Shown in pieces: positions 2,353 to 55,951 of a stretch of DNA of 64,000 bases. Below the pieces are notes generated by a model, which searched no databases, was not told the origin of the DNA, and was given only the letters and a program-made list of their open reading frames with translations. This DNA is from an uncultured virus (IMG/VR IMGVR_UViG_3300030101_004641) (Duplodnaviria > Heunggongvirae > Uroviricota > Caudoviricetes): the IMG/VR virus record IMGVR_UViG_3300030101_004641; one strand, written 5' to 3'. The translations under genes and the position numbers were made by a program. Within the stretch, counting starts at the first letter, position 1, and every line of letters starts with the position of its first letter.

Positions 2353-4188
2353 ATGTTAAGGTTCGTCTTTGACTGTGAAACAAACGGTCTTCTTCATGAA
2401 TTAGATACTGTTCATTCCTTAGTATTACGGGATATCGATTCTGGAGATGTGACAAGCTGTGCTGACCATGATGGTTACGAACCAATATGTAATGGCCTAT
2501 ACATGCTGTCTCAGGCGGATTTACTTGTAGGACATAACGTAATTAATTTTGATTTTAGGGCTTTAAAAAAAGTTTATAAATCATTTAAGTTAAAAAAAAA
2601 TTGCAAGATAAATGACACATTAATAGTCAGTAGAGTTCTTCATCCAGAATTAGAGCCTGTGGATGAAAAAAAATTTTCACATATACCATCAAAATATAAA
2701 GGAAAACACTCTTTAGCAGCTTGGGGAGAAAGATTAAATGTAAAAAAAATAAATTTTTTGGGGGATTCAGCATATGAAGAACGCTGGGATATCTGGTCAA
2801 ATGAAATGCAAAAATACTGTGAGGGAGATACATTAGTATCTTTAAAATTATTTGAGTATTTTGAAACACAATTTTTAGATCCAAGATGTTTTGATTTAGA
2901 ACATGAATTTGCAAGAATTATGGCAAGACAAGAATCATTTGGTTTCCCATTTGATGAGAAGAAAGCTTTTGCTCTAGTTAATGAATTAAAAAAACGAAGG
3001 GGTGAGATAGATGAAGATTTACAGCAAATATTCCCACCTATATCAGAAGAAAGATTTTCGGAAAAAACAGGCAAACAATTAAAAACTAAAGTAACTAAAT
3101 TTAATCCTGCCTCTAGACAGCAAACATCTCAAAGACTTAAATCAAAATATCCTCAAATTAGATTTGGTAAAACTGAAAAAGGTAATGTCAAATTAAATGA
3201 CGATGTATTAGATGTTCTTGGTAAAAAATATCCAGAGGCTGCTTTACTCGCAGAATATCAGTTATTAAATAAAAGATTAGGGCAAATATCGGAAGGTAAA
3301 GAAGCTTGGCTAAAGCATAGTCAGAGATATGGAGATGGAAGGATTCACGGATCCGTAATCACAAATGCTTGCGTATCAGGACGTTGTAGTCATAGAAATC
3401 CAAATATTGCTCAGATTCCACGAGTTGGTCAGCCTTATGGCTCAGAATGTAGATCTTTGTTTTATGCCCCTCACGGTTGGAGACAGGTGGGATGTGATGC
3501 CTCTGGTTTAGAATTAAGGGCACTTGGGGCTCAACTCGCTTACTTTGATGGAGGAGAGTATTCAAAATTAGTTAGTACCCCAGGGTTTGATATTCATACT
3601 CATAACGCCAAATTGTTTGGAATATATGATGGTCAAGGAAAAATAGAAAAACGGATAAGAGAATTAGCAAAAACACTAATTTACGCAGTTCTTTATGGTG
3701 GTGGTCCAAATCGTATCGGTTCAATACTTGATTCAAGTTTAAATCAAGAAGATCGACAAAATATAGGAAGAGAAACAATTGACACCTTTTATAAAAATTT
3801 ACCAGCGATAAAAAAACTAAGGGATAAAGTAGATGAGAAAGTTATGCAAAGAGGATATCTTATTGGTATTGATGGTAGACATTTACAAATTAGATCTAGA
3901 CATTCAGCTTTAAATCAGCTTTTACAATCAACAGGCAGCCTTTGTGTAAAAAAAGCTACATGCATTTTGTATAAAGATTTAAAAAATAACCACTTACGTT
4001 GGGGTATCCATTATGCATTCGTCGCTCATATACATGATGAGATACAAGCATTAGTGAAACCACAACATGTTAGCCTCTACAAGAAACTTGCAGTGGACTG
4101 TTTTCGAAAATCTGGAGAGTATTTTAATTTAAGATGTCCTTTAACAGGAGAAGTAAATGAAGGAAAAAATTGGATGGAGACACATTAA
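2353..4188 (+). CDS. polA: Family A DNA polymerase, T7/cyanopodovirus-like, with 3'-5' exonuclease
   Basis: ExoI FDCETNGL, ExoII GHNVINFD, motif A VGCDASGLELR, motif B RELAKTLIYAVLYG (Tyr at the E. coli 762-equivalent position), motif C HIHDEIQ. Confidence 0.97.
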   Translation: MLRFVFDCETNGLLHELDTVHSLVLRDIDSGDVTSCADHDGYEPICNGLYMLSQADLLVGHNVINFDFRALKKVYKSFKLKKNCKINDTLIVSRVLHPELEPVDEKKFSHIPSKYKGKHSLAAWGERLNVKKINFLGDSAYEERWDIWSNEMQKYCEGDTLVSLKLFEYFETQFLDPRCFDLEHEFARIMARQESFGFPFDEKKAFALVNELKKRRGEIDEDLQQIFPPISEERFSEKTGKQLKTKVTKFNPASRQQTSQRLKSKYPQIRFGKTEKGNVKLNDDVLDVLGKKYPEAALLAEYQLLNKRLGQISEGKEAWLKHSQRYGDGRIHGSVITNACVSGRCSHRNPNIAQIPRVGQPYGSECRSLFYAPHGWRQVGCDASGLELRALGAQLAYFDGGEYSKLVSTPGFDIHTHNAKLFGIYDGQGKIEKRIRELAKTLIYAVLYGGGPNRIGSILDSSLNQEDRQNIGRETIDTFYKNLPAIKKLRDKVDEKVMQRGYLIGIDGRHLQIRSRHSALNQLLQSTGSLCVKKATCILYKDLKNNHLRWGIHYAFVAHIHDEIQALVKPQHVSLYKKLAVDCFRKSGEYFNLRCPLTGEVNEGKNWMETH

Positions 4189-30684: not shown

Positions 30685-33600
30685 TTATGCTGCTTCAAGG
30701 GCTGCGACTTTTGCTGATAATTCTTTCACTGCGTTTATTAAAATAGGTACAATTCTTTCATATTTCATAGTGTATGATCCACTTGAATTTATTGATGAAA
30801 TTAACATATCTTCTTTTGTTTGACCAAAGCCAAATTCTTTTTCTATTTCTAATTCTTCTTGTGCAATTAAACCTAATTCAAGTTGTGGTGCTTTTTTAGA
30901 TCCATCAGGAGAACCATCTTTATACCAATCTCTATTATCCCAACGATAAGTAACAGGTCTCATTTTGTTTACCCAATCCAATCCAAAATTAAAATCAGTT
31001 ATATCTGTTTTGTCTCTTTTATCTGAACCTGTTTGAAAAGCTACTTGAATATGTGCGGCACTAACACTTGAATCGCCTATACAAACTGTATTACTTGCTG
31101 TTGAAACTGTTCCAGAGGGTGAGCTACTTGTTCCCGCACGTTTTCCAATAAATGTATTATTAGAACCTGTTGTCACATCAAATCCAGAAATTGTTCCTAC
31201 ACATGTATTATTTTCTCCAGTTGTGTTAAGCCTCATAGCGTCCATTCCCATTGCTACGTTATTATCTGCCGTTGTATTATCAGCTAGACAATTTTCTCCT
31301 ATCGCAACATTCCCTGATCCTGTAGTATTATCTGTTAACGCAAATACTCCAAAAGCACAATTTTTGTCTCCAGTAGTATTTGTGTCTAAAGCTTGACGAC
31401 CAACAGCAGTGTTATCTGTTCCAGTTGTGTTTGCAAATAATGCATTTTCTCCAACAGCAGTATTATTGCTTGCGGTNNNNNNNNNNCCAGTAGTACAAGC
31501 ATCTAAAGCTAAAGAACCTACAGCAGTATTTTGTATTCCAGTTGTTATTTCTCCACAAGAGTTATTACCTACTGATGTATTATTAGACGCTGTTGTATTA
31601 TTTGCTAAAGCATTTCTACCAACAGCCGTATTATCTGTTCCTGTGGAATTAGTTGTTAAAGCTTGATAGCCAATTGCTGTGTTATCATCTGCTGTAGTGT
31701 TGGCATCTAAAGCTAAAGAGCCAACTGCTACGTTTCTTGTTCCAGTTGTGTTTGCAAATAATGCATTTTCTCCAACAGCAGTATTATTGCTTGCAGTTGT
31801 ATTACTACCCATACTTCCACGACCTATAGATATATTTTTTTCTCCTGTAGTATTAAAACTTAAAGCACCAAATCCCAAAGCAATATTTCTATCTCCTGTA
31901 GTGTTAGCATCTAAAGCAAAAGCACCCACTGCTACATTTTCTGTTCCAGTTGTGTTTTTTTGTAAAGTTGCAAATCCAACAGCCGTATTATTATCTGCTG
32001 TATTCTCCTCTAAACAATCTCTTCNNNNNNNNNNTATTTTGGTCACCACTGGTATTATGTCTAAAACAATTGACACCCATTGCTGTATTATTATTACCAC
32101 TTACATTATCTTCACCACAATTTAAACCAACAACTGTGTTTGATGTTCCAGTTGTATTTACCAATAATGCGTCTGCTCCAATTGCAGTATTATTAGATCC
32201 TGTCGTATTATCTCTTAAAGAAAGACTACCGATTGCTGTATTAGCAGAACCTGTTGTGTTATTTGATAATGCTGTACTACCGAAAGCAGAGTTATTATCA
32301 GAAGTAGTATTTGCTCCTAAAGCATTAACACCAACCGCTGAATTATTACCTCCTGTTGTGTTTGCATCAAGCGCACCAGTTCCCACAGCTGTATTTAAAA
32401 CACCAGTTGTATTAGAACCTAAAGCTCCATAACCAACTGCTGTAGCATTACTAGCAGTAGTATTAGCATCTAAAGCTCCTGCACCTACGGCTGTGTTTAA
32501 ATCTCCAGTTGTGTTTGCTGATAAGGTTAGATGGCCAAGAGCAGTATTATTATTTGCTGTTGTATTGTTAGCTAAAGCTGATGTTCCAACTGATACATTT
32601 TGCGTACCAGTTGTATTTACATGTAACGATCTCCACCCAACAGCTACGTTATTAGCTGCCGTTGTATTAGCTTCCAAAGATTCAGCACCAAATGCAGTGT
32701 TAAACCCTCCAGTGGTATTTATTATCATAGAACGATGACCCACTGCTGTATTAAGTTGTCCTGTTGTGTTATTAGCTAAACCACTAAATCCAACAGCAGT
32801 ATTAGAACTTGCTGTTGTGTTATCTGCTAAAGCATCGTGACCAACCGCTGTATTCTCAGCTCCAGTTGTATTTGTTGTTAATGCTTGTATTCCAACGGCA
32901 GTATTATTATCAGCTGTAGTATTAGCATCTAATGCGAAAGCACCGACAGCTACGTTGTCTGCTCCAGTTGTGTTTTCCCTTAAAGCAGAATAACCTACAG
33001 CAGTATTGTTATCGGCAGTCGTATTTTTTCTTAAAGAATCTACTCCAGTTGCAGTGTTCTTATCTCCAGTAGTATTATCTGTTAAAGAAGCTTGTCCTAC
33101 TGCTGTGTTTTCTGCTCCCGTAGTGTTATCTGATAAAGTAGCTTGACCTATTGCAGTATTATCGTTTGCTGTAGTATTTGCATCTAAGGCTTGCTCTCCT
33201 ACCGCTGTATTTTGTTGACCACTAGTATTTAGAGTTAAAGCGTTTTTACCAATTGCCGTATTTTTTTCACCAGTAACAGCAGCATCTAAAGCACTTTCTC
33301 CAAGAACTGTGTTACCGGCAACAGAGTTCGCACCTTTACCTACAGTTACGCTATTTATTGTTGCGTCTTTTGAAGTAATTGTTAGTCCATTACCATCTAT
33401 ATTTAATATTTCAGTTGCATTAGAAACAACTCCTATATCTCCAGAACCTTTTCTGTAAAATCCAGTGTCTTCGTCTGCAATAAAAGTTATGGAGGGAGAT
33501 CCGCTGGCTCCTGCAGGGAATGTACCACCTGCATTTAGATAATCAGCAGTCGCATATATTATTCCAAAAAATGCATGTCCACCCGTAGGGGCAGAACTAA

Positions 33601-33832
33601 AAACAATATTTGTTCCAACTAAATTAAATCCTGAAGCTCCAGTAGGATCAGGTTCTTGAATGACTCCATTAACTGATATTAAAATTTGTTGGGGTGATTT
33701 TGGGAAAGGTACGGGAGAGGAACCAGCAACTTGTAACGCAAAAGATGTGGCACTACCGTCAAATCCACTGCTTATATCATCGATTAATCTATAATCGTCA
33801 GCGGCACGAATAGTATTTCCAATATATGGCAT
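30685..33832 (-). CDS. Long tail fibre with NTAxG repeats and C-terminal Peptidase_S74; one gene interrupted by two assembly gaps
   Basis: Track ORFs 31991-33832 and 30685-32100 join across N10 gaps at 32025-32034 and 31477-31486; GSDKRDKTDI...GLIAQE. Confidence 0.85.
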
Positions 33833-50334: not shown

Positions 50335-50820
50335 CTAAGATTCTTCTTGTAATATTTTTGTCCAAACTCCCATTGATGCTTCTTGTAAAGGACCCTCTAT
50401 AGGATCATCTCTAAAAATAGATAACATTTCTCTTAATGCTCTATCCGCACCAGCAAGAATTAATCCTTGTTTATCTTGTAAAATCTTTTTATCCTCAATT
50501 TGTTTTATAGCCCCACGTAATTCCTTTTGTAACATTGCAATTCTTGCAGCACCCATATCCTGTTTAACTAGACCCATATCAATGGCCTGTCTTAATTTAG
50601 AAATATCATCCTGCATATTATCAATTTCTCTTTCTAAAACTTTGTTAAAATTTCGTTTTTTATATTCTTTTTCAGACCATTCATTACATTCCACTATTGT
50701 CCCTTGAAATCCTAAAAATCGGGAAAATAAATATATTTGCACTGGTGAAGCAGTTTTCTTACAAAATTGAAAAAAGGATTCTCGATCTTTATTATTTAAA
50801 GATTGAATCCATTGCTTCAT
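50335..50820 (-). CDS. Possible terminase small subunit
   Basis: Helical, directly upstream of terL; position only. Confidence 0.4.
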   Translation of the reverse strand: MKQWIQSLNNKDRESFFQFCKKTASPVQIYLFSRFLGFQGTIVECNEWSEKEYKKRNFNKVLEREIDNMQDDISKLRQAIDMGLVKQDMGAARIAMLQKELRGAIKQIEDKKILQDKQGLILAGADRALREMLSIFRDDPIEGPLQEASMGVWTKILQEES

Positions 50821-52070
50821 ACTCTAGCCGCTCCTCTTGCTTGATTGAAATCTCTATTCTCTTTATAACGCCTAAACATCTCTTGTTGCAAGTCTGTAAT
50901 TCTTTGTTGACTACCAGCAGTCTCAAGTGCTTTTCTTTGTTGTAATCCTCTTTCCGCTGTAGTTAAACGCTCTTGAGCTCCAGTGGTTTCAATTCCTAAT
51001 CGTTGCTGAAGACCTGCTTCTGTAAGACCTAATCGTTGTTGTAGTCCTCTCTCTGCTTCTGTTAAACGCTCTTCTGTTCCTCTAAGACCAATTTGTCTTT
51101 CCTGACCAGATAATAATTGTTCTTGAGTTAACCTTGCTTGTTCTCCCAGTGTTCCTGCTGTTAAACGGTCTTCTGCTCCTCTAAGACCAATTTGCCTTTC
51201 CTGACCAGCTAATAATTGTTCTTGAGTTAATCTTTGTTGCTCTCCTCCTGTAGCCAAAGTTAATCGATCTTGTTCTCCCGTTGTCGCTGCTGTTAATCTT
51301 TGTTCCGCTCCTGCTTTGCCCAAAGTTTCCCTCTCTTCTGTTCCTGTTTTCCCTATTATGTCCTGCTGACCTTGTATTTGATCTGCTAAAGTTAATCGAT
51401 CTTCTGTTCCTCTTTTACCTAGTATGTCTTGCTGACCTTGTATTTGGTCTGCTAAAGTTAATCGATCTTCTAATGCTTGTTTTCCAATTACTCCTTTCTG
51501 AGCTGTCGCTTGTGTGTCTATAGTTAACCTATCTTCTGTTCCTGTTTTTCCGATTATTCCTTTCTGAGCTTCTGCCTGTGTGTTGATTATTCCTTTTTGA
51601 CCTTCTATCTGATCTGCTAAAGTCTTTCTTGTTTCATCTCCGGCTGTCTGCATATTAAAGCGTTGCTCAGTCCCAGCTGCCTGTCCTTTTTTAATATCTA
51701 GCGATGTAAAAAAGTCAGCATTAACTCTATCTAATGCTGCACCAAATTCCATATTTAATTGTTGTTGTGAAGCTGCTGTTTCATTCAAAGCAGTTTGTGT
51801 GGCTAATGATTGACTACCGGTCTGTATAACATTTGTATCACCAACTTTTACATTTCCTAACTCATCTTTAGCCTCTGGAGTTGTTGGAGTTGATCCACCT
51901 TTGTTTTGAGGTATTGGACCAACAAAATCATCGCCATATTCCGTAACATCTCCTGGCTCTTTCTTTTTTAAACTAGGTACAGTTGCTTTTCCTGATGTAA
52001 GAAAAGCCATATAATCGGTACCAGCTACTGATTCTGGACCTGAAGGAGTTTTATCTTTTGACTCACTCAT
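50817..52070 (-). CDS. Probable internal virion protein with 11-residue repeats
   Basis: Repeated G(T/A)E(D/E/Q)RLT units. Confidence 0.6.
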   Translation of the reverse strand: MSESKDKTPSGPESVAGTDYMAFLTSGKATVPSLKKKEPGDVTEYGDDFVGPIPQNKGGSTPTTPEAKDELGNVKVGDTNVIQTGSQSLATQTALNETAASQQQLNMEFGAALDRVNADFFTSLDIKKGQAAGTEQRFNMQTAGDETRKTLADQIEGQKGIINTQAEAQKGIIGKTGTEDRLTIDTQATAQKGVIGKQALEDRLTLADQIQGQQDILGKRGTEDRLTLADQIQGQQDIIGKTGTEERETLGKAGAEQRLTAATTGEQDRLTLATGGEQQRLTQEQLLAGQERQIGLRGAEDRLTAGTLGEQARLTQEQLLSGQERQIGLRGTEERLTEAERGLQQRLGLTEAGLQQRLGIETTGAQERLTTAERGLQQRKALETAGSQQRITDLQQEMFRRYKENRDFNQARGAARV

Positions 52071-52997: not shown

Positions 52998-53768
52998 TTA
53001 GTAGTTGTATTGGGTTGTTAAAGCTTGACCAGCTTGCTGTGCAGCTGTTGTGCCAAGTTGTCTTGTTGCTGCAGCCATACCTTGAGTTAGAGCTGCATTT
53101 GTTGCAATATTCTGAGCAATACCTCTAGATGCCATACTTCTTGCAAAGTCATCCTTCTTAGCCTGTTCAGAAAACTTACGTAGTGTAGGAAGAACAATAT
53201 TTGTCGCATCTCTCAAAGCTTCAGCATCTTTTTGAGTCCTTACTCTTCTACCTGCATCAAGACCTAAAGGACTTAAAACATCAAGGGGTAGTCCTGATGG
53301 ACCTACATTACCATAAGGTCCCATTCCTGGAGGTATAGCAACACCACCTAAACCTTCATTACCAATTGACCCATATCCTGCTAATCCAGCAGCTCCTTCT
53401 GCAACATTTCTTGCTGGTCTGCCTAAAAATCCAGCTGTTGATCCTCCAGCAAGCGCACCTAGTCCTAATGGTATACCTGCTGTGGCAACACCTTGTAAAG
53501 CTTGAGCTCCTGCAGTTCCTGCTAAACCTCTTTTTGCTGCTTGTTCAAAAATTGCTTTATTTGCTGCAGATACTCCCTTTCCAGCTACAGAACCCAATCC
53601 TGCAGTACCTAAAGCTCCTAATCCTCCACCTACTAATGCTCCTGCTAAATCTCCTCTCATAATTGAGGGGGCTGCACCTGCAGTAATACCAGCTGCTCTG
53701 AGAAGTAAAGGTAGTTTTAAAGCTCCTACCTTAGCTAATGCTGGCATAAATGCTCCGGCCATCAACAT
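52998..53768 (-). CDS. Glycine-zipper membrane-active protein (probable ejection protein)
   Basis: Long Gly/Ala hydrophobic stretches; helical C-terminus. Confidence 0.55.
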   Translation of the reverse strand: MLMAGAFMPALAKVGALKLPLLLRAAGITAGAAPSIMRGDLAGALVGGGLGALGTAGLGSVAGKGVSAANKAIFEQAAKRGLAGTAGAQALQGVATAGIPLGLGALAGGSTAGFLGRPARNVAEGAAGLAGYGSIGNEGLGGVAIPPGMGPYGNVGPSGLPLDVLSPLGLDAGRRVRTQKDAEALRDATNIVLPTLRKFSEQAKKDDFARSMASRGIAQNIATNAALTQGMAAATRQLGTTAAQQAGQALTTQYNY

Positions 53769-53810: not shown

Positions 53811-54035
53811 TTAACTATTCTTTGCCTTTAACTCCTCTTTTGCTTCAATCATATACTTATACAAAACATCCATATCTAACATTAAAACACCCTCTACTTC
53901 TACTACAGCCTCTGGAATAATCTTCTGTACTTGTTGTGCAGAGAAACCTGCTCTTAACTTCTGTTCAGGATCAAATTCTTTTTTATAACGAAATTGTATA
54001 GGTACTAATTGTTTTAATTTTTCAAGAGCACTCAT
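53811..54035 (-). CDS. Stand-alone C-terminal part of a Peptidase_S74 chaperone domain
   Basis: ALEKLKQLVPIQFRYK...AGFSAQQVQKIIPEAV...EAKEEL. Confidence 0.85.
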   Translation of the reverse strand: MSALEKLKQLVPIQFRYKKEFDPEQKLRAGFSAQQVQKIIPEAVVEVEGVLMLDMDVLYKYMIEAKEELKAKNS

Positions 54036-54696
54036 TTAAGTCTTTTACGAAGAACGCACATTCTGATAATACGTCATTTACGTCTGACTTACAAAGCGGA
54101 GCAATATCTTCTTTTAATCTAATATCACAGAAAAGTCCCCCAAGAAATCCACCTACTGCTCCTCCTATTGGACCAAATATACTACCTACTGCAGTTCCAA
54201 GAGCACTTCCAGCCATTCTCTTACTGTCCTTTTTCTGTTGCTGTTGTTGCTGCTCCATTTGTTGTACTTGTGCTCTTTCAACAGAATTGTCAGGTGGTGT
54301 ATACAAGCTTAAATTGTCTGCAACTCTAGATACACCTCCTCCTCCAGAACCTCTTTTTGTTGTAAAGTCTCTCAAAAACTTTTCTTCTTCTGATACATTT
54401 TTCTCTGGATTGTATGATCCTATCCCCTCTACTAATTTTCCTAAAAATCCTTTACCCGCATCTTCAGCCTGAAAAGGAATATTATAAGGTGATTGAAAAT
54501 CCCTGTAATCCATACCTGAGATACTTCCACCTAATATAGGAAAATCACTATTTTCTCTAAGTACAGGCATTTGTTGACTTAAGCCCTTTCCACGATTATC
54601 AAAATCAAAACGGTCGCCAGTGACCTTATCTAAGACCCCACCAGCGACTTTACCAAAACTAGGTAATATTGCACCAGCAATTCTTCCCAAAACCAT
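54022..54696 (-). CDS. Glycine-zipper protein ending in the N-terminal strand of an S74 domain
   Basis: GSALGTAVGSIFGPIGGAVGGFLGGLF-CDIRLKEDIAPL. Confidence 0.75.
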   Translation of the reverse strand: MVLGRIAGAILPSFGKVAGGVLDKVTGDRFDFDNRGKGLSQQMPVLRENSDFPILGGSISGMDYRDFQSPYNIPFQAEDAGKGFLGKLVEGIGSYNPEKNVSEEEKFLRDFTTKRGSGGGGVSRVADNLSLYTPPDNSVERAQVQQMEQQQQQQKKDSKRMAGSALGTAVGSIFGPIGGAVGGFLGGLFCDIRLKEDIAPLCKSDVNDVLSECAFFVKDLNECS

Positions 54697-55951
54697 AAGA
54701 CTATTCCTTTTTTAAAATTATAAAATATCTATGCACGGAGTCCTGTTCCATATATGCCTCGTCCAAAGATACCTACTTCATCTAAAAGACTTTTTTCAAA
54801 TGCTCTATCTGCAGCCATCGGATTTAAAGAGCCGGGATATTGAGCACCTGGAATTCTAGATTCAGCTCTTGCTTGCACTAAAGCCATGTCATGCATAAAT
54901 TTTTGATTTTGTAATTGCTGTGACTGTAAGAAGAGCTGCATATCTCTAGTTGCGGCATTAGTTGCCATTGGTTGTGAATATTTAGATTGTTGATCAAACA
55001 CTCTATCCGCTAATGATAAACCTACACCGGCAACTCCTAAACGTGCTGCACTCTCAGCTGCTCTAGGTAATGGACTTCTTTGTGATGCTCTTAATATAGC
55101 TGGTAATTCTGACTGTGCTAAGTTCGGCATAAATCTATCTGTGCCTGCTTTCAATGCTACTCCGGCACCATAATTTGCGAGTCTTCCAATTCCACTCGAC
55201 ATAGTATCAAAAAACTTTCCTAACTGCTGACCAGCTAATCCTTTTGTACTCATTACACTGCCACCGAATTACTTGGGAATCGACCAGCTATATTTGGATC
55301 CTGTACCGCTCCACCACCAGTTGCTGGTTGTGAGGATAGCTGAACTAAATTCTCTGGTCTTACTATTCTATCAGGCTCAATCAGTCCTTTACCTTCGGCC
55401 GTATTAGATCCTCCTAATGCTGAATAGTACTTTGTCAGAAAATTCTGTGCCTGAATATTATTCTGTCCTTCAAAAGTATTGCCATAAAAACCAGTTCTAT
55501 TATCAATTTCAAATTGTGCCCTTTGAGCCTCTTCTGTTGGAAAAGTCTGATAAAAACTATCACTTCTAGGACTTGATTTAAATTTACCTAAAAATGGATC
55601 GGGCTTAAAAAAATCTTGAGAAGGTTTGGTAGGTCCTGTAGTAAAACTTGGAATTTTTTTACCTCCCTTAACAGCTTTATCGCTTGGTGTTTCTAATCTT
55701 CTGTTTAGGTTAGTAATTTTTACCATGGTTATGATTCAAATAGTGCCTTCTCTAATTGTGCAACAAGTAAATCATCTACCTTGTTACCACTTTTAGCTGC
55801 TGCTTTTTTTAAAATAGAAATTAAAAATTTCTTAAGTAGTTCATCTAAGTCTTCTGGGATTTTGTCAACTGCCTTGTTAATTACATTGATTGCAATTGGA
55901 AGTAAAAATTTAGTCATAATTTTGTCCTGATAATAATAATTTAGCAAAGGT

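Follow-up and report, generated by a model that had tools for sequence, protein, structure and literature searches.

A two-gene form of the S74/ICA chaperone domain, with cysteine at the nucleophile position, in a lineage of uncultured marine phages

The S74/ICA domain is a fold-and-cut domain, which usually occurs in one piece at the end of a tail fibre. In the stretch of DNA studied here, the 64,000-nucleotide (nt) IMG/VR record IMGVR_UViG_3300030101_004641 of an uncultured virus of the Caudoviricetes (this whole stretch is referred to as the window), such a domain is divided over two overlapping open reading frames on the minus strand, ORF1 and ORF2. ORF1 (54022..54696, minus strand, stop codon included) codes for a protein of 224 residues, composed of a low-complexity N-terminal part, a glycine zipper, an S74 dyad strand and a 23-residue tail, and its C-terminal end reads ...GGFLGGLF-CDIRLKEDIAPL-CKSDVNDVLSECAFFVKDLNECS*. 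The glycine zipper (54130..54216, minus strand; residues 161-189, MAGSALGTAVGSIFGPIGGAVGGFLGGLF) has eight GxxxG starts and is predicted to form the new C-terminus after cleavage. It is followed by the S74 N-terminal strand (54094..54129, minus strand; residues 190-201, CDIRLKEDIAPL), which starts with the dyad motif C190-D-I-R-L-K195 (54112..54129, minus strand), such that the predicted scissile bond is F189|C190, at window position 54130/54129. The tail (54025..54093, minus strand; residues 202-224, CKSDVNDVLSECAFFVKDLNECS) is inserted in comparison with contiguous S74 domains and is a putative clasp onto ORF2. Strand and tail together make up the 35-residue C-terminal peptide of ORF1 that is referred to below as the tag. 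ORF2 (53811..54035, minus strand) codes for 74 residues, being a stand-alone S74/ICA domain core. The two reading frames share the dual-coding overlap ATGAGTGCTCTTGA (54022..54035, minus strand), which runs over 14 nt from the start codon of ORF2 through the TGA stop codon of ORF1.

ORF2 has the S74/ICA fold, as seen from its Pfam match, from a profile search against the sequences of the Protein Data Bank (PDB) and from structure comparison. It matches the PF13884 Peptidase_S74 profile with E 1.4e-10 and 41.7 bits (cut-off 22), covering profile positions 16-57 of 58, so that the first ~15 profile positions are absent from ORF2. The PDB-sequence profile search identifies 7dc3 (E 6.4e-5) and the tail fibre 8jov (E 0.0033). 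The AlphaFold2 model of ORF2 has a predicted local distance difference test score (pLDDT) of 94.7, and its best structural match in Foldseek is the ICA domain of MyRF, 7dc3 (TMq 0.79, prob 1.00, E 7.9e-5); the phage chaperone domains 3gud and 3gw6 are found at weak scores (E 0.15-1.2). This agrees with the original prediction, made from the letters of the window only, that the rest of the S74 domain is encoded by an overlapping ORF in the +1 frame, directly after a TAA.

The two fibres of the window have contiguous S74 domains from profile position 1, with the motifs SDQRIK and SDKRDK, and these domains have 15 residues between the serine and the L-x-x-I/V helix. The same 15-residue spacing is obtained when residues 190-201 of ORF1 are joined to residues 1-3 of ORF2, and because these two pieces restore the canonical spacing, the tail is seen to be an insertion at the break. 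A hidden Markov model (HMM) of contiguous S74 domains was built from 104 segments, taken from the proteins at ranks 18-150 of the representatives search described below that have SD.[RK].K and at least 70 residues from the motif. Residues 2-73 of ORF2 fit positions 22-93 of this HMM (78.7 bits), and the ORF1 strand CDIRLKEDIAPL aligns to positions 9-20; the fit of ORF1 residues 190-208 to positions 9-26 is weak (2.6 bits) because the piece is short. The spacing within the dyad motif is also that of the family, with the lysine five residues past the nucleophile in an x-D-x-R-x-K strand, as in C190-D-I-R-L-K195. In alignment A1 (41 sequences), the aspartate and the lysine of the motif are invariant and the cysteine and the arginine are at least 90% conserved, and the tail has the consensus ExTEVNDxLAExAFFVKxLRECS. 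The statements of the original prediction about these sequences (a glycine zipper followed by CDIRLKEDIAPL and 23 further residues in ORF1, and SDxRxK in the fibres) all hold. ORF1 alone has no significant S74 match in Pfam, and a PDB profile search with its C-terminus found nothing meaningful.

The divided arrangement is confirmed in many related genomes. An IMG/VR scan with ORF2 yielded 77 distinct loci, the best 51 of which (L006-L056, 47-89% identity) were analysed; the 26 weak or partial matches L057-L082 (mostly 29-38% identity) are excluded from all counts. The 51 loci are not de-replicated and hold 44 distinct ORF2 proteins, with 38 distinct tag peptides among the 49 loci that have the dyad. 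In these 49 loci the domain is distributed over two ORFs in different frames, and the motif [CS]D.[RK].K lies 35 residues from the end of the upstream ORF in 48 of them and 34 residues from it in L045. Since this arrangement recurs in 49 of 51 related loci, the split is far beyond chance. The 14-nt overlap is identical in length in 48 of the 51 loci; the other three are L045, which has a 4-nt ATGA overlap with another frame relation, L010, with an 8-nt spacer, and L013, with a 1-nt overlap. A contig of a different study aligns without gaps to window positions 53944-54087, from which it differs by 12 substitutions, and the independent contigs aligned to the window have no listed indel between 54000 and 54140. 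The overlap at 54022-54035, named in the original prediction as the place where read support should be examined, is thus spanned without gaps.

A fused form of the two genes was looked for in two ways. A large protein collection contains 628 homologues of ORF1, and the 120 that are listed have lengths of 189-224 residues; 118 of these 120 end exactly 35 residues past the cysteine, PF13884 is found in none of the 120 and none of them is called as a fusion. A profile of 41 ORF2 sequences was also compared with 1.84 billion representative proteins, giving 1998 proteins at E <= 1e-3, 150 of which are listed. The best 17 of these 1998 (E <= 3.5e-15) are 47-169 residues long and mostly match from residue 1, and long contiguous proteins, which are ordinary fibre-like ones, first appear at rank 18 (E 1.3e-14). 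No fused ORF1-ORF2 protein is present among these 17 best representatives or the 120 listed ORF1 homologues. With the split dyad kept in 49 of 51 loci and no close fused form, the conservation on which the original prediction depended is present. One of the 120 ORF1 homologues reads CDISLK at the dyad motif. Another, P0008, continues in frame past the usual TGA (...NECSW...), because the TGA has changed to a sense codon or because the gene was called with another genetic code. Two short S74-core proteins among the 150 listed representatives, P0153 (90 residues) and P0203 (97 residues), lie outside the ORF2 family and have no dyad motif; these could be other split forms or fragments.

The sequence of the overlap indicates how ORF2 is translated. 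ORF2 is in the +1 frame relative to ORF1, and in the window a TAA stands directly before its ATG (...ACT TAA ATG AGT...). A start codon is kept in all 51 loci, being ATG in 12 and GTG in 39. In each of the 39 GTG loci, the overlapping arginine codon of ORF1 is CGT, the sole arginine codon that gives GTG, and the sequence AAGGAG, AAGGGG or AAAGGT is found 5-10 nt upstream of the start in the GTG loci. Outside the overlap, the third-codon-position entropy is highest in the frame of the respective gene: in the tail it is 1.30 in the ORF1 frame (vs 0.72 and 0.50), and after the overlap it is 1.20 in the ORF2 frame (vs 0.68 and 0.37). Inside the overlap the entropy is low at all three codon positions. 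The switch of the entropy peaks from one frame to the other across the overlap implies that the tail is translated as protein and that ORF2 is a separate gene. Judged from these codon patterns, both frames are under purifying selection and ORF2 starts independently at its own ATG or GTG, as the original prediction had preferred to a frameshift fusion.

The nucleophile position is occupied by cysteine in 48 of the 49 dyad loci and in all 120 listed ORF1 homologues, in line with the replacement noticed originally; the one remaining dyad locus, L046, has serine. In this respect the window family departs from the serine nucleophile by which the S74 family is defined. Among the 150 listed representatives, one contiguous S74 protein also has cysteine at this position. 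This is P0188 (901 residues), which has the motif CDARLK, a Laminin_G_3 domain, YadA-head repeats and a match to PF13884 positions 1-58 at 58.1 bits. Because P0188 is contiguous, the cysteine is not confined to the split form. By sequence, cysteine is a putative workable residue at the S74 nucleophile position.

The association of the two proteins, which the original prediction had pictured as a 3+3 complex, was modelled in this one stoichiometry from three C-terminal 75-residue chains of ORF1 and three chains of ORF2, with 41-row alignments for both. The interaction prediction score from aligned errors (ipSAE) of this model is 0.79 (median of 0.81, 0.66 and 0.79), compared with 0.01 for the best of three controls. 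The mark used for this score is reached by 116 of 157 solved complexes and by 2 of 215 mismatched pairs, and these counts are rough for the present case, which has its own alignments and six chains. The contacts agree by at least 68% between the runs, and the partner pLDDT is at least 80. The interface is formed between construct residues 34-72 and ORF2 residues 7-18, 26-34 and 50-66. Both the dyad strand and conserved residues of the tail, L52, L61, A65, F66, V68 and K69 (numbering of the 75-residue construct), take part in it; the ORF1 strand 190-201 touches ORF2 residues 12-17 and 29. In this model ORF1 and ORF2 are arranged as in a normal S74 domain, onto which the tail packs. The score is to be read as a measure of this likeness and not of binding, because two halves of a known domain can score well through their resemblance to S74 trimers that have been solved.

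The related loci present the module in three states, and these bear on the predicted cut site. In state A, which comprises the 49 dyad loci, both the tag and ORF2 are present. In state B, comprising L010 (3579-4225) and L013 (33-583), ORF2 is intact and ORF1 ends ...GGLF* or ...GGLFG*, which is at the predicted cut site or one residue beyond it. No other dyad motif is present within the fetched L010 and L013 loci, and the ORF2 genes of these two loci differ from those of their relatives by 13-25 synonymous and 8-16 non-synonymous codons. In state C, ORF1 stops with the end of the glycine zipper or close to it and is followed directly by the next conserved gene, g256, with neither tag nor ORF2; this is the case in all eight loci that were found with P0279 (L084-L091). 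Database proteins of state C end ...KLLF, ...GGLF, ...GGFM, ...GGFMG or ...GGIV, and a 63%-identical sister retains the tag; the endings ...GGLA and ...GFFS also occur among ORF1 orthologues without the module. State C matches the expectation for a mature protein that stops where the cysteine begins. From these ends, ORF1 would be cleaved at F189|C190, by which its hydrophobic C-terminus is exposed.

The module also occurs on other proteins. In L045 (2178-4228) the tag and ORF2 are attached to a strongly basic protein of 608 residues with an Arg-rich end, and the glycine-zipper ORF1 homologue of the same genome, encoded on the same 59,963-nt contig (L089, state C, 2785-4157), is without the module. 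In L046-L048 and L050 the cargo is a protein of 395-601 residues, which in L046 and L047 has a coiled-coil appearance and matches phrog_20153. Since tag and ORF2 occur on different cargo proteins, the module behaves as a cassette. Three points go beyond the original prediction: the tail is a conserved protein segment and part of the modelled interface, varied cargo proteins carry the module as a cassette, and two contigs keep ORF2 without the dyad peptide.

It is probable, in our judgement, that ORF1 and ORF2, which are observed as two genes and modelled as a 3+3 complex, constitute a naturally split S74/ICA chaperone and autoprotease, which is rebuilt in trans and cuts at F189|C190; the cleavage and the role of the cargo are what we infer. 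In such a mechanism, ORF1 would supply the catalytic strand, with Cys190 and Lys195 instead of the usual Ser-Lys dyad, together with the family-specific 23-residue tail, and ORF2, translated from its own ATG or GTG at 14 nt ahead of the ORF1 stop, would supply the remaining fold. Three ORF2 chains would associate with the C-termini of three ORF1 chains, and the tail would serve as a clasp that substitutes for the missing peptide link. The rebuilt trimeric domain may then unite three ORF1 chains and align Cys190 and Lys195, after which an N-to-S acyl shift and hydrolysis, proposed by analogy with the Ser-Lys dyad, would cut the F189|C190 bond. The predicted products are a mature ORF1 (residues 1-189), ending in the glycine zipper, and a by-product that consists of the 35-residue peptide and ORF2.

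A bolder extension is that ORF2 is an intermolecular and possibly reusable trimerising chaperone and co-protease in a portable two-gene cassette, for which any protein with the 35-residue Cys-tag is a client, and that ORF2 still serves the tag-less glycine-zipper protein in L010 and L013. We regard this as tentative, the odds being clearly against it. If true, ORF2 would be the first case in nature of an 'intramolecular' chaperone that acts in trans, loading internal or ejection proteins rather than fibres, and the pair would be a split self-cleaving tag that is ready for use.

Several observations weigh against the split autoprotease. The S74 assignment of ORF1 rests on motif, spacing and conservation, and the ORF1 chains have a pLDDT of only 54-55 in the 3+3 model. 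The known S74 cargoes are trimeric fibres and a trimer of ORF1 is putative. L010 and L013 keep a constrained ORF2 though the dyad peptide and the tail are deleted, by which either ORF2 may have a tag-independent role or the deletions are recent. Eight relatives are without the entire module, which is therefore dispensable for the cargo.

An alternative is that ORF2 is a stable, non-cleaving partner of the tag, such as a trimerising cap or a docking adaptor, or that it has a function of its own, with C-D-x-R-x-K being a mere binding strand. This is unlikely, but it accommodates the intact ORF2 of L010 and L013, which have no dyad peptide at all, and also the strong conservation of ORF2, which ranks with the best-conserved proteins of the module (70-89% identity between syntenic relatives vs 32-70% for ORF1; in loci that are more distant, ORF2 has 47-69% identity); moreover, catalysis by cysteine in place of serine is putative in the S74 family. 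A binding strand does not explain so readily that aspartate and lysine are invariant, and cysteine/serine and arginine nearly so, while the identity of ORF2 drops to 47%, which is the pattern of a catalytic strand. The sole replacement of the cysteine is serine, and the orthologues without the module stop at or near the predicted cut, both of which argue for a cleaving domain.

A programmed +1 frameshift or hop within the 14-nt overlap, by which ORF1 and ORF2 are fused into one chain with a ~20-residue insertion, is considerably less probable still. The frames do overlap, the length of the overlap and the TGA stop are strictly conserved, and +1 shifts can be favoured when the A site holds a stop codon. 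However, a start codon is kept in all 51 loci, with the CGT usage that it forces on ORF1, and in the clade of the window the TAA directly before the ATG leaves only 12 nt for the shift. The codon preceding the ORF1 TGA differs among loci (TCT, GCT, TCG and CCT), so that there is no common slippery site, and the conserved slippery codon before an in-frame stop that is typical of prfB-type +1 frameshifting is not seen. L045, L010 and L013 have other junctions, as described above, and none of the 120 listed ORF1 homologues is called as a fusion. A minor frameshift product alongside a separate ORF2 is possible.

Only the unusual look of the split would suggest that it arose as an error of assembly or sequencing, or that a contiguous S74 domain has recently become a pseudogene. 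The probability of this is negligible, given that many samples contribute to the 49 of 51 contigs with the same architecture, that 118 of 120 listed database proteins share it, that both frames are under purifying selection and that an independent contig covers 53944-54087 without a gap. A spliceosomal-type intron and a bypass of the T4 gene-60 type were dropped as well, since neither is compatible with the frames and since the tail shows conservation at the protein level.

Helper proteins that act in trans are known from other phages. In the chaperones of the T4 gp38/gp57A and lambda Tfa type, a small helper gene also lies directly downstream of that of its client; these have unrelated folds, do not cleave themselves, and act on a client that contributes nothing to the chaperone fold. 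Naturally split inteins provide an analogy only, being self-processing domains distributed over two genes that become active once the halves associate, commonly with a cysteine nucleophile, but their fold is unrelated and they carry out splicing instead of the release of a helper. The split autoprotease proposed for the window is of the same family as the C-terminal intramolecular chaperone domain (CIMCD) of the K1F endosialidase and those of other phage fibres and spikes (MEROPS S74, PF13884; PDB entries 3GW6 and 3GUD), with which it shares the x-D-x-R-x-K strand with the lysine at +5 and the canonical helix spacing. It differs from the K1F-type CIMCD in being encoded by two genes, in having cysteine and not serine, in having the conserved 23-residue insertion at the break, and in its cargo, which is of low complexity with a glycine zipper and not a beta-helical fibre.

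The ICA domain of MyRF (7DC3) is a precedent for a non-fibre cargo next to a membrane segment, part of which is released by trimer-dependent self-cleavage, as described in the MyRF study (PMC8326128). According to the same study, the S587A and K592A variants abolish cleavage, these residues matching S911 and K916 of endoNF, and the cleavage requires the trimer (PMC8326128). In MyRF everything is encoded in one chain, the dyad is Ser-Lys and the membrane anchor comes after the domain, whereas in the window the hydrophobic segment precedes the cut and would stay on the released product. No description of a split S74 domain was found in literature searches on S74 and intramolecular chaperones, as judged from the search listings. 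Features of the window family are the cysteine at the nucleophile position, the putative clasp of 23 conserved residues, the constant overlap of 14 nt, the non-fibre cargoes and the three evolutionary states.

The S74/ICA domains are defined by their action within their own chain, and the conserved two-gene cysteine form allows a direct test of folding help and self-cleavage in trans. The same form can be used to ask how small the tag may be and whether the S74 fold supports thiol chemistry. It adds glycine-zipper, coiled-coil and basic virion-type proteins to the fibres as clients of S74 domains, in a marine lineage that is abundant, uncultured and related to phage S-EIVl. A possible use is that of a split, partner-triggered self-cleaving tag.

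Concerning the role of the cargo, the gene order in two T7-like relatives is informative. In L047, a nozzle gene (Phage_nozzle PF25675, E 2e-124) is followed by an ORF of 172 residues, the tagged cargo, ORF2 and a protein of ~885 residues. In L046, the nozzle gene (PF25675, E 2e-112) is followed by the tagged cargo, ORF2, a protein of ~883 residues and then a match to the internal virion protein family phrog_6651 (E 6e-11). The position of the cargo in L046 and L047 is presumably that of the T7 internal core genes. In the window a nozzle gene is not recognised, and the module lies upstream of g161 and TerL. ORF1 itself has no Pfam or PHROG match to known internal virion proteins; its Pfam matches are weak ones of the glycine-zipper type under the cut-off, to C19orf12 (E 2.7e-4), DUF456 and DUF1269. 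An Atlas search with ORF1, whose own model has a pLDDT of 0.49, gave only unnamed viral clusters and no functional lead; one S74 cluster in the Atlas search scored 0.83, which is to be taken as a lead only. The gene position in L046 and L047 thus weakly suggests that the ORF1-type cargo is an internal or ejection-type virion protein. The original prediction had described ORF1 as a membrane-active ejection protein; the ejection part of this description finds some backing in the T7-like order, and the membrane part is left doubtful by a most hydrophobic 19-residue window of ORF1 with a Kyte-Doolittle value of 1.49, which is borderline for a membrane span.

The window comes from an uncultured marine phage, which encodes a DNA polymerase, a primase, TerL, a portal-like protein, a major head protein and two fibres, and the stretch is also present in marine metagenome runs. 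The nearest cultured relative, by the portal-like protein of 752 residues, is Synechococcus phage S-EIVl (52% identity). S-EIVl has only g161 and TerL in common with the gene module (blastp at 1e-4), and the dyad motif was not found in the corresponding S-EIVl region. A blastn search of the region against 50,697 phage records gave no match. A tblastn search of ORF2 against the same 50,697 records found only contiguous fibre-type S74 domains, in 25 records and at no more than 38% identity, with the exception of one match of 40.7% identity and 78% coverage; S-EIVl gave none. The gene order across the lineage is g492-g72-g157-g174-ORF1-ORF2-g256-g290-g417-g161-TerL. Upstream of ORF1 lies the conserved neighbour g174 (54729..55253, minus strand), and downstream of ORF2 lies the conserved Gly/Ala-rich g256 (52998..53768, minus strand), which comes directly after ORF1 in relatives without the module. 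Further along, g417 (window 50817-52070) codes for a Gln/Glu/Arg-rich protein with many ...RLT... repeats and is among the fastest-evolving genes of the module, with 29-52% identity in relatives. The TerL gene of S-EIVl (L083, 10081-12621) is annotated with 2541 nt, compared with 1524 nt in the window, and the proteins are 68% identical over the blastp alignment; the larger size suggests an insertion such as an intein or a homing element.

An 889-nt contig of run X7 joins window position 53828 to 54693, with 481 different letters replacing the 864 nt that contain ORF1 and ORF2. This contig probably represents the ORF1/ORF2 pair in a diverged or shortened version; the side match is only 44 nt at the 90% threshold. 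Two runs of ten N (window 31477-31486 and 32025-32034) are located within the fibre region. The ORF of 613 residues (31991-33832) and the S74 fibre ORF of 471 residues (30685-32100) overlap at the second of these runs, and they may be one fibre gene that is interrupted by masked bases.

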